Shown: positions 12,504 through 57,724, numbered from the stretch's first letter. The stretch is 64,000 nucleotides of DNA from Octopus vulgaris (GCA_951406725.2 OX597827.1:26226001-26290000), one strand, 5' to 3'. A program made the numbers and translations. The notes: generated by a model from the letters alone, not told the origin.

Positions 12504-12868
12504 ACATGTACACATATACATATGTATATATATATCAACAAGGGAGGGTAAAGTTAATTAGTTATTAATCAATTTCATCAAGTGTTCAGTATGTAAAGGG
12601 ACCATTATTATTTTGAGTAAACAATGTTAGAGGAAAAAAATTCTCTAAGTAGTGGAAGAGGCTAAAAAACTTTATTGGCTGCTATTTCTAGAAAGTTTAG
12701 TATGTGGCAAAGTAATTTATTTTATTTTCCTAAGCCCTAATTATATAATATTTTATACATACATACACATACATAAGCACATACATTTACACATACATAT
12801 GCATATACATATATACACATATACATACAAACACATATACACATATACACACACACACACATACAAGC

Positions 12869-51225: not shown

Positions 51226-51259
<34 letters not shown>

Positions 51260-51263
51260 CACT

Positions 51264-51368
51264 GTGACCGACCAGGCTATCAGATATTGCTACACATCGC
51301 TGGTTACAATGCGCTTCGCATTATTTTAGCCTTCAAATGACGCCACCCCCCCTGGCTAAGCGAGCAGG

Positions 51369-51372
<4 letters not shown>
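51264..51372. mobile_element. 108-bp (TA)n-embedded element, copy 2
   Basis: Matches 20961-21068. Confidence 0.8.
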
Positions 51373-51436
<64 letters not shown>

Positions 51437-54937: not shown

Positions 54938-55057
<120 letters not shown>

Positions 55058-55072
55058 GTATGTATGTGTATA

Positions 55073-55103
<31 letters not shown>

Positions 55104-55105
<2 letters not shown>

Positions 55106-55288
55106 CAACAATCAAGGAACGGCCATAATAGGCCATTCACCCACTAGAAATAACAGCCAAAAGCTTTAACCGCAAAATAACGTCAATTCCGTAAACCAGG
55201 AGAAAATTGAAAAACATTTACCCTGTAATTTCTTAGACGATGCACCGTTTCATCTTCTGTTTTATGGAAAACTAACCTGATTAAATTA
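55104..55288 (-). repeat. Inverted partial copy (about 185 bp) of the 493-bp unit
   Basis: Reverse complement of about 55719-55903 with one mismatch; overlaps the forward array by AAATTA (55283-55288). Confidence 0.95.
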
Positions 55289-55672
55289 CAGGGTAAATGT
55301 TTTTCAATTTTCTCCTGGTTTACGGAATTGACGTTATTTTGCGGTTAAAGCTTTTGGCTGTTATTTCTAGTGGGTGAATGGCCTATTATGGCCGTTCCTT
55401 GATTGTTGATGTTGAACTTAAAAATGGTTTATGACTATTTAATTTTTTCCCACTAGGCCGCTGGTGGCAAAAGAATTCTACAAAATTTTTTTTGCCACCC
55501 TATATTGATTAATTATGAATTTTCTGGTTAATTCCGTAATGGAATCGGCGGCTTATATTTATTTGCTGCCGATAAATTTGGCGCGAGTGCGACGATTTGA
55601 AAATTTTAGGTCAGATATTGACGAGGTAGTAATGAGAATGCCTCGTGAAAAATATCTGTTCCGGTTTTGGCT

Positions 55673-55779
55673 ATTTCTTACTGATGAATCTAAGGGCCTA
55701 TGGTAGATTGGCTTGATTTAATTTAATCAGGTTAGTTTTCCATTAAACAGAAGATGAAACGGTGCATCGTCTAAGAAAT
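55673..55779 (+). ncRNA. Type I hammerhead ribozyme, unit 1
   Basis: atttctta CTGATGA atct...agat GAAA cg gtgcat cg TC taagaaat: 8-bp stem I, intact core, GUC cleavage after 55771. Confidence 0.93.
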
Positions 55780-56165
55780 TACAGGGTAAATGTTTTTCAA
55801 TTTTCTCCTGGTTTACGGAATTGACGTTATTTTGCGGTTAAAGCTTTTGGCTGTTATTTCTAGTGGGTGAATGGCCTATTATGGCCGTTCCTTGATTGTT
55901 GATGTTGAACTTAAAAATGGTTTATGACTATTTAATTTTTTCCCACTAGGCCGCTGGTGGCAAAAGAATTCTACAAAATTTTTTTTGCCACCCTATATTG
56001 ATTAATTATGAATTTTCTGGTTAATTCCGTAATGGAATCGGCGGCTTATATTTATTTGCTGCCGATAAATTTGGCGCGAGTGCGACGATTTGAAAATTTT
56101 AGGTCAGATATTGACGCGGTAGTAATGAGAATGCCTCGTGAAAAATATCTGTTCCGGTTTTGGCT

Positions 56166-56272
56166 ATTTCTTACTGATGAATCTAAGGGCCTATGGTAGA
56201 TTGGCTTGATTTAATTTAATCAGGTTAGTTTTCCATTAAACAGAAGATGAAACGGTGCATCGTCTAAGAAAT
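56166..56272 (+). ncRNA. Type I hammerhead ribozyme, unit 2
   Basis: Identical to unit 1. Confidence 0.93.
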
Positions 56273-56658
56273 TACAGGGTAAATGTTTTTCAATTTTCTC
56301 CTGGTTTACGGAATTGACGTTATTTTGCGGTTAAAGCTTTTGGCTGTTATTTCTAGTGGGTGAATGGCCTATTATGGCCGTTCCTTGATTGTTGATGTTG
56401 AACTTAAAAATGGTTTATGACTATTTAATTTTTTCCCACTAGGCCGCTGGTGGCAAAAGAATTCTACAAAATTTTTTTTGCCACCCTATATTGATTAATT
56501 ATGAATTTTCTGGTTAATTCCGTAATGGAATCGGCGGCTTATATTTATTTGCTGCCGATAAATTTGGCGCGAGTGCGACGATTTGAAAATTTTAGGTCAG
56601 ATATTGACGAGGTAGTAATGAGAATGCCTCGTGAAAAATATCTGTTCCGGTTTTGGCT

Positions 56659-56765
56659 ATTTCTTACTGATGAATCTAAGGGCCTATGGTAGATTGGCTT
56701 GATTTAATTTAATCAGGTTAGTTTTCCATTAAACAGAAGATGAAACGGTGCATCGTCTAAGAAAT
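56659..56765 (+). ncRNA. Type I hammerhead ribozyme, unit 3
   Basis: Identical to unit 1. Confidence 0.93.
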
Positions 56766-57151
56766 TACAGGGTAAATGTTTTTCAATTTTCTCCTGGTTT
56801 ACGGAATTGACGTTATTTTGCGGTTAAAGCTTTTGGCTGTTATTTCTAGTGGGTGAATGGCCTATTATGGCCGTTCCTTGATTGTTGATATTGAACTTAA
56901 AAATGGTTTATGACTATTTAATTTTTTCCCACTAGGCCGCTGGTGGCAAAATAATTCTACAAAATTTTTTTTGCCACCCTATATTGATTAATTATGATAT
57001 TTCTGGTTAATTCCGTAATGGAATCGGCGGCTTATATTTATTTGCTGCCGATAAATTTGGCGCGAGTGCGACGATTTGAAAATTTTAGGTCAGATATTGA
57101 CGAGGTAGTAATGAGAATGCCTCGTGAAAAATATCTGTTCCGGTTTTGGCT

Positions 57152-57258
57152 ATTTCTTACTGATGAATCTAAGGGCCTATGGTAGATTGGCTTGATTTAA
57201 TTTAATCAGGTTAGTTTTCCATTAAACAGAAGATGAAACGGTGCATCGTCTAAGAAAT
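57152..57258 (+). ncRNA. Type I hammerhead ribozyme, unit 4
   Basis: Identical to unit 1. Confidence 0.93.
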
Positions 57259-57481
57259 TACAGGGTAAATGTGTTTCAATTTTCTCCTGGTTTACGGAAT
57301 TGACGTTATTTTGCGGTTAAAGCTTTTGGCTGTTATTTCTAGTGGGTGAATGGCCTATTATGGCCGTTCCTTGATTGTTGATGTTGAACTTAAAAATGGT
57401 TTATGACTATTTAATTTTTTCCCACTAGGCCGCTGGTGGCAAAAGAATTCTACAAATTTTTTTTTGCCACCCTATATTGAT

Positions 57482-57579
<98 letters not shown>

Positions 57580-57589
57580 CGTGATCACC

Positions 57590-57697
57590 GTGACCGACAA
57601 GGCTATCAGATGTTGCTACATATCGCCGGTCACAATGCGCTTCGCATTGTTTTAGCCTTCAAATGACGCCACCCCGCTGGCTAAGCGGGCAGGCCAA
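57590..57697. mobile_element. 108-bp (TA)n-embedded element, copy 3
   Basis: Matches 20961-21068; preceded by caccgtgat-cacc short repeats. Confidence 0.8.
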
Positions 57698-57724
57698 TAT
57701 ATATATATATATATATATATATTG

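Follow-up and report, generated by a model that had tools for sequence, protein, structure and literature searches.

Metazoan non-LTR retrozymes are the closest described counterparts of the octopus element analysed here, and both circular RNA and cleavage have been demonstrated for them (Cervera and de la Pena 2020, PMC7229834). The octopus element shares with these retrozymes a tandem arrangement of non-coding units, each bearing a single type I hammerhead, together with low GC and a stable self-paired fold, as well as dispersal through a genome in which Penelope-like elements (PLEs) coexist; a route from circRNA to tandem cDNA is proposed in that paper. It differs from them in the length of its unit (493 nt, against 150-450 bp) and in a 60-nt insert in stem II. 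The part of the paper available to us describes no pair of divergent arms with fixed, unequal ends, and the octopus element is known from sequence alone. The same class of element, with a proposed dependence on PLEs, is treated by Li, Clavereau and Pollet (2026, bioRxiv 10.64898/2026.07.22.740005). A first-pass annotation had called the octopus unit unusually long, which does not hold, as 493 lies within the 51-972 bp range given in that preprint. In the part of the preprint available to us no mollusc is included, the link to PLEs is pLTR similarity, whereas the octopus link is an insertion footprint, and tandem arrays are attributed to local amplification.

Insertions of the EN+ PLEs Neptune and Naiad lie in (TA)n and combine partial tandem repeats with a 5'-truncated copy in inverted orientation and a tail that is often confined to one end (Craig et al. 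2021, PMC8557442), and this signature recurs in the octopus insertions. Non-autonomous tandem derivatives (MRC1) are also reported there. Compared with the PLEs in the available part of that paper, the octopus element has a longer tail (~105 nt vs 30-40), arms that can both be multi-unit and no ORF, and its unit is without 3' similarity to the sampled autonomous family. The PLE enzyme PAc (Poseidon, Anolis; Frangieh et al. 2024, PMC11167929) cleaves AT-rich DNA on both strands and extends each of them. Its starts lie at two internal RNA positions, one at either border of the genomic tail; it is predicted to form a dimer, and unprocessed RNA is its main substrate in vitro. Two internal start sites bounding a tail, the use of both strands and an AT-rich target all have parallels in octopus. 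In the account of PAc available to us, the start sites are alike between strands and ribozyme cleavage is not needed, whereas the octopus insertions use one site per strand and many of their arms end at the predicted cut. Since such starts are internal, no RNA 3' end would be needed, so that a circle could also serve as template.

Our literature search returned no description of the octopus family, of cephalopod retrozymes or, in retrozymes, of the end rule set out below; repeat databases (Repbase, Dfam) may list the family. Tandem type I units, lack of coding capacity, dispersal, GC <50%, a stable fold and a coexisting PLE were all found, and on these features, each testable in sequence, the element appears to be a new member of the animal retrozyme class. 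We conclude that it is probably a young non-coding retrozyme insertion with two divergent arms of unequal fixed ends, placed in (TA)n and written in trans by a Penelope-like (probably Neptune-type) RT-endonuclease.

Organization of the element

The element lies in a window of 64,000 nucleotides of Octopus vulgaris DNA (OX597827.1:26226001-26290000; "window" denotes the whole stretch that was analysed), and its features are collected in Table 1. A tandem array with a period of 493, 4.5 copies and 99% matches confirms the near-identical head-to-tail units reported in the first-pass annotation. With unit 2 as reference, units 1 and 3 each differ at the same single site, unit 4 differs at 5 sites, and the partial unit 5 has 2 differences plus one at the TA border. 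Monomer positions are numbered from the first base 3' of the predicted cut (position 1). The 493-nt monomer is stably folded both as a linear molecule (z -5.6) and as a circle (z -5.5).

The array had been placed directly in a TA microsatellite. TA repeats do flank the whole element (55104-57488), with (TA)n on each side, but the array itself does not start in the TA run, as an inverted arm intervenes. This arm had been overlooked, and together with the rule of two fixed ends described below it is the most informative feature of the locus. It is 99% complementary to 55719-55903 (1 difference in 185) and merges into (AT)n at its outer 3' end (55104). The hammerhead portion that it contains is incomplete, being without CUGAUGA. 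The outer 3' end of the direct arm falls at monomer position ~234-238 (57484-57488), where it is blurred by the TA repeat.

Two copies of a short repeat (92% alike) were also seen in the window, at 51258-51397 and 57584-57722. Both end in (AT)n, and the second directly adjoins the right TA flank of the element. Between 45037 and 49700 lie fragments of LINE-like sequence, with RVT_1 and zf-RVT pieces that score below cut-off, interrupted by trinucleotide microsatellites.

Table 1. Coordinates of the octopus element and its parts, in positions of the window.
Feature	Position	Strand	Remark
Left (TA)n-rich microsatellite flank (target)	54947..55105	.	
Inverted "short-end" arm, 185 bp	55104..55288	-	monomer 441-493 + 1-132
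Hammerhead 3' half in inverted arm	55228..55251	-	GAAA, stem III, GUC, stem I 3' strand
Head-to-head junction	55283..55288	.	6-nt overlap common to both arms
Direct "long-end" arm	55283..57488	+	4.5 tandem 493-bp units, starts at monomer position 5
Hammerhead 1, type I	55673..55779	+	predicted cut after 55771
Hammerhead 1, stem I	55673-80/55772-79		
Hammerhead 1, CUGAUGA	55681-87		
Hammerhead 1, stem II	55688-55755		19-pair hairpin 55700-55743
Hammerhead 1, GAAA	55756-59		
Hammerhead 1, stem III	55759-70		
Cut-to-cut monomer, 493 nt	55772..56264	+	36% GC
"Tail", ~105 nt, unit 2 copy	55904..56009	+	from short end site (132) to long end site (235-238)
Hammerhead 2	56166..56272	+	predicted cut after 56264
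Further cut-to-cut monomers	56265-56757, 56758-57250	+	
Hammerhead 3	56659..56765	+	predicted cut after 56757
Hammerhead 4	57152..57258	+	predicted cut after 57250
Right (TA)46 flank (target)	57485..57576	.	

Hammerhead motifs

All four complete motifs have an 8-bp stem I, CUGAUGA, GAAA, a 4-bp stem III closed by a palindromic UGCA loop, and GUC. The first-pass annotation had described one perfect type I hammerhead in each of the 4.5 units. It was right about the motif elements (8-bp stem I, CUGAUGA, GAAA and GUC), while the complete motifs number four and "perfect" is an overstatement given the 60-nt insert in stem II, the missing Rfam match and an active fold above the energy minimum. In stem II, four pairs are followed by an 8x8 internal loop and then by a 19-pair hairpin. 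The proposed covariance-model search left the element unmatched by any Rfam hammerhead model, either at gathering score or at E<=10, and returned only TA-driven miRNA noise; the stem II insert is the likely cause of the miss. The active fold is predicted to lie 3.3-6.2 kcal/mol above the free minimum in fragments and 4.9 above it in the circle. Free folding prefers other pairings and did not produce the ribozyme fold.

Across 57 family loci the core (CUGANGA / GAAA) is invariant except at N7; GUC and GUA both occur as cleavage triplets (H17 = C or A). The labels N7 and H17, like U3/A8 and C3/G8 below, follow what we take to be the hammerhead core numbering. In the family alignment 97% of cells are paired, compared with 30-47% in slid controls. 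Among 23 distinct sets, loop III reads UGCA in 19 and UAUA in 3 (both palindromic) and UGUA in one. Inside the family no stem pair has changed on both sides. A candidate compensatory change from A-U to G-C at the base of stem II was rejected, its two changes sitting in separate copies.

A sister family, ~70% like the unit, keeps all three stems with different letters. Stem pairing in the family and its sister is 0.94/0.87 when each strand is kept in its own context and 0.52/0.62 when strands are swapped between the families. Pairs that covary between the two include I.1 (AU/GC), I.3 (UA/CG) and I.4 (CG/UA) in stem I, II.1 (AU/GC), II.2 (UA/GC) and II.4 (UA/AU) in stem II, and III.3 (GC/UA) in stem III. 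Within the sister family, I.5 varies as UA/CG. Despite the free-fold preference, conservation and covariation support the predicted ribozyme fold.

Stem III has a predicted energy of -0.2 as a hairpin and -17.5 kcal/mol as an intermolecular duplex. A short stem III with a palindromic loop has been described for dimer-active animal hammerheads (PMC4209133). The octopus motif resembles the PLE and other metazoan type I hammerheads of that study in both traits and is likewise probably dimer-active, and it differs from those in the available part of the study in its longer stem I (8 bp) and its branched, extended stem II. Of the nine Xenopus retrozymes reported in the available part of bioRxiv 10.64898/2026.07.22.740005, eight did not cleave.

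A dispersed non-coding family

The 3' half of the ribozyme has 2,676 exact matches in the genome, against 0 for a reversed control. The genome-wide search for dispersed copies that had been suggested returned many: across the 2.8-Gb genome, 1,181 first-look candidates matched the unit, and 40 of them were scored. Exact patterns joining an end to TA matched 247 and 909 times (909 for the long end), with 0 matches in controls. We put the family at about a thousand insertions or more. Two sets of loci were read. Set A comprises the 40 best loci by unit score, the array locus included, picked regardless of their ends; set B comprises 39 consecutive long-end loci on contig 1. Identity of loci to the unit ranges from ~73% to 100%.

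No reverse transcriptase or PLE frame is attached to the unit in any of the 80 loci read (80 of at least 909), and the RT-like matches present in 6 of these 80 all lie outside the element. The sole coding capacity of the unit is a 65-aa stop-to-stop frame. This frame was dismissed as a gene, as Pfam returned nothing for it and most loci carry indels near position 385-387. The unit closes on itself. In none of the 80 loci does an RT plus GIY-YIG frame lie between the repeats, and in none does the unit serve as pLTR to a neighbouring coding element. The original reading of a young, dispersed, non-coding retrozyme-like family is supported.

Several other hammerhead families were observed. The sister family is older and has 2,346 first-look candidates (L164, L165, L170, L187, L221-L244); it has the same UGCA loop, compensatory stems and a variable AU-rich stem II hairpin, and its TA-joined ends lie near 128-133 and 225-238 nt past the cut. 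A further family, probably the ~560-nt one, has 1,763 candidates (L078:2500-2785, L191-L220) and a related fragment in the window at 12525-12755. This further family has a long stem II, a CGCG loop, two arms in (TA)n and a ~100-nt tail, and it has an 18-nt motif in common with the unit, upstream of the short end (not significant over the whole region, p=0.23). A short stem II and a palindromic loop III characterise three or more additional type I hammerhead-like families (L161-L190). The short-stem hammerhead pattern gave 46 matches, compared with 9 in the control.

Two-armed insertions and the TA target

Outer ends were scored as short at positions 124-138 and as long at 229-243, typically ~132 and ~236 past the cut. 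Fifty-nine of the 65 two-armed loci of both sets pair a short with a long end, and none has two short or two long ends. In set A, 36 of 40 loci are two-armed (33 short and long, 3 with one odd end, 0 with ends alike). Set B has 29 two-armed loci among its 39 (26 short and long, 3 odd, 0 with two long ends), the other 10 being scored as single. TA-rich flanks are present on both sides in 61 of the 65. L160 is outside this end-rule count. The first 100 ribozyme matches listed contain 15 mixed-strand clusters by eye, all 15 divergent.

The inner ends are variable. Either arm may be the longer, with lengths from <100 to >5,000 nt, and the lengths of the two arms show no tight relation to each other (rho -0.28 and +0.47). 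Of 63 inner junctions, 33 have an overlap, 4 are blunt and 26 contain filler. We consider that this two-armed layout with fixed ends likely records a Penelope-type enzyme copying RNA into both strands of the target. The inverted 5'-truncated arm, the one-sided tail and the microsatellite target are the marks of a PLE-mobilised element. With the end rule, the TA target and the enzyme geometry described below, they support the Penelope-type mobilisation already suggested in the first-pass annotation, which we regard as very likely.

Candidate Penelope-type enzyme

The genome contains an autonomous PLE family with many intact copies (L104:745-5960 on G000:C6; also L101-L116 and L119). In this family a 479-aa upstream frame overlaps a 781-aa RT-CX4CX2C-GIY-YIG frame, in which GIY-YIG is C-terminal. 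The CX4CX2C linker marks Neptune or Nematis (PMC8557442). Copies sit in (TA)n and have two alternative 3' ends 40 nt apart, which amounts to a 40-nt tail, and all three two-armed copies pair a short with a long end. The family is apparently young and active, and from its target and geometry we infer that it may be the Neptune-type partner of the octopus unit. Its pLTR holds, by eye, a minimal hammerhead-like motif with U3/A8 replacing C3/G8.

Local alignment of the unit with the 3' region of this family did not rise above shuffles (p=0.24), and the by-eye similarity of the unit to the Neptune-type 3' end likewise did no better than shuffles. The proposed search for an autonomous PLE sharing the unit found none. 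In 50 GIY-YIG loci (150 of 6,136 candidates were scored) the unit was never joined to the frame and had no 3' similarity to an autonomous PLE family; L073 carries an unrelated 57-nt insert, not the unit. No coding element sharing the unit was found among 30 of the 46 short-stem hammerhead matches or in the ~560-nt family.

Other PLE families or Naiads are possible partners. Further PLE families with a C-terminal GIY-YIG, mostly decayed, were observed at L071/L073, L072, L074/L098/L118, L086/L092, L087, L088 and L091, and any of them could be the partner.

Probable family RNA and editing

Four loose contig ends from three studies look hyper-edited when compared by eye, with A>G changes in three and T>C in the fourth. 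They come from runs guessed to be RNA, none of which is recorded as such, and 0 of 6 contigs listed from a large control run look edited. They map to positions 55339-55368, 55628-55657, 56258-56287 and 56333-56357 of the window, and in one edited contig the cleavage triplet and stem I are changed. Such apparent hyper-editing suggests transcribed double-stranded RNA at the level of the family, not tied to the array locus; read-through of two-armed copies would give such RNA. Editing of the hairpin between the arms may disable the ribozyme. Contigs X3 and X13, from two studies, begin at the cut, a weak hint given that contigs break at branch points. Contigs of runs guessed to be RNA span the cut site.

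Variant sharing, stops at the cut and the RNA template

Both arms of a locus carry the same variant. Differences amount to 0.46% within arms and 0.49% between arms. All 47 loci fall below their own median distance to other loci, and 23 of the 47 fall below the distance to the nearest locus (L036, L067, L045 and L160 were excluded from variant and core comparisons). Stops concentrate at the cut. Of the 53 arms of set B that reach positions 1-30 for the first time, 19 stop there, compared with 3.7% per 30 nt elsewhere (p=2e-14), and after one crossing 3 of 22 arrivals stop in set B and 2 of 128 in set A. The two arms of one locus tend to agree, with both stopping in 7 loci, both crossing in 12 and the arms differing in 2 (p=5e-4). 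Within set B, the difference between first and later stops is not significant (p=0.09). The pooled value (p=3e-4) mixes two differently chosen sets, as set A was picked for full units and is therefore blind to first-pass stops. L036, L067, L045, L053 and L047 were excluded from the stop analysis.

This pattern suggests that cleaved linear templates and endless templates are both used. The simplest reading is of one RNA primed twice, which ends at the cut as a linear molecule in some events and is endless in others. Cleaved RNA is a likely template, and the chance that monomer circles make most of the multi-unit arms is about even.

A competing account, which we consider less likely than not, keeps the same enzyme and start sites and has as template mostly uncut multimeric read-through RNA (twin priming) or monomers joined by jumps, the ribozyme being slow or a passenger and circles being minor. 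In L053 a 15-nt deletion just past the cut occurs at one junction in each arm, and in L160:394-5223 the same 235-nt aberrant piece, made of a short end and 27 nt of the locus's own flank, occurs once per arm. These one-off aberrant units common to both arms, together with L059 and L063, which are mosaics of two alleles, and L054, with a 2-unit duplication pattern, are evidence against a lone monomer circle. Also against a pure monomer circle are the few private variants fixed across units (5, compared with 62 private singletons and 10 partial), the preference of PAc for unprocessed RNA and the eight Xenopus retrozymes that did not cleave. Of the five deletions >=5 nt that were found, 2 sit no more than 2 nt from the cut, a placement expected from jumps or trimmed ligation. 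The gap of 3-6 kcal/mol between the active fold and the minimum, and the contigs that span the cut site, also favor an uncut template. Set against this, there are 7 loci in which the two arms cover overlapping monomer positions and each ends within 30 nt of the cut, and long arms cross the cut nearly without stops (the 2 of 128 above). Units are also near-identical per locus even in diverged subfamilies, those of L159 being 0.15% apart inside the locus and 4.2% from other loci. Some loci at least require multimeric templates, jumping from one cleaved monomer to another, or conversion between arms at a later stage.

The layout could also have arisen by insertion of about one unit, followed by growth of the arrays in place through unequal crossover or slippage, with shared variants produced by gene conversion between arms; a local-growth model of this kind, as for satellites, is discussed in bioRxiv 10.64898/2026.07.22.740005. 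The 2-unit periodic variant pattern of L054, the alternating variants of L049 and the flank sequence within the aberrant piece of L160 would fit such growth. It is nevertheless unlikely, as within-locus variants are mostly singletons (103, compared with 16 partial), the rate at which inner ends stop on later turns is about uniform over the unit, and very young loci already have up to 10 units in one arm. It is more improbable still that the unit is just a pseudo-LTR, belonging to an autonomous Penelope-like element of which no full-length copy was sampled. The PLE end geometry and the hammerhead agree with that idea, as does the reading of only part of the family, but neither the 80 loci nor the 50 GIY-YIG loci join a PLE frame to the unit, which closes on itself and encodes nothing with a Pfam match. 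Fold-back chimeras are a known long-read artefact, and palindromes might be suspected of being read or assembly artefacts. Such a chimera would mirror one end, whereas the ends here differ by rule, and independent short-read contigs show the same joints of end and TA (positions 235, 238 and the short end), making an artefact barely credible.

Proposed mechanism

In the mechanism that we favor for a Penelope-written retrozyme insertion, family copies would be transcribed and the predicted hammerheads would likely cleave, most efficiently when paired as dimers by the palindromic loop III. Cutting would yield linear monomers, which the first-pass annotation had predicted to be exactly 493 nt long, and ligation would turn part of them into circles. 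Both (TA)n strands are probably nicked by the enzyme, which would prime two cDNAs on the same RNA, at ~132 and ~236. If the template were a cleaved linear RNA, each cDNA would end at the cut and short palindromes would result; a circle or an uncut multimer would let the cDNAs continue for several turns and give tandem arms. The cDNA ends would then be joined by microhomology or filler and copied out as a head-to-head insertion.

More tentatively, and with the balance somewhat against it, an enzyme dimer may act on one ribozyme-made circle at two sites 105 nt apart, one primed per (TA)n strand, so that rolling-circle copying would yield the two-armed product. Short palindromes ending at the cut would then be the same reaction on unligated linear monomers.

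Significance

The inverted arm, the one-sided tail and the (TA)n target are known PLE traits. To these the octopus family adds a near-strict rule of one site per strand with a 105-nt tail, a signature of stops at the cut site that the two arms share, and a candidate enzyme that is present intact in that genome. The literature treats as open questions how retrozymes move and how PLEs come to form insertions that are tandem and inverted and have a tail on one side; the value of the octopus family is mechanistic. The published in vitro assay, combined with this family, makes the circle-template model directly testable. If the rolling-circle reading is true, these insertions would be a genomic record of circular RNA serving as a retrotransposition template, and the one-sided tail of PLEs would be explained.
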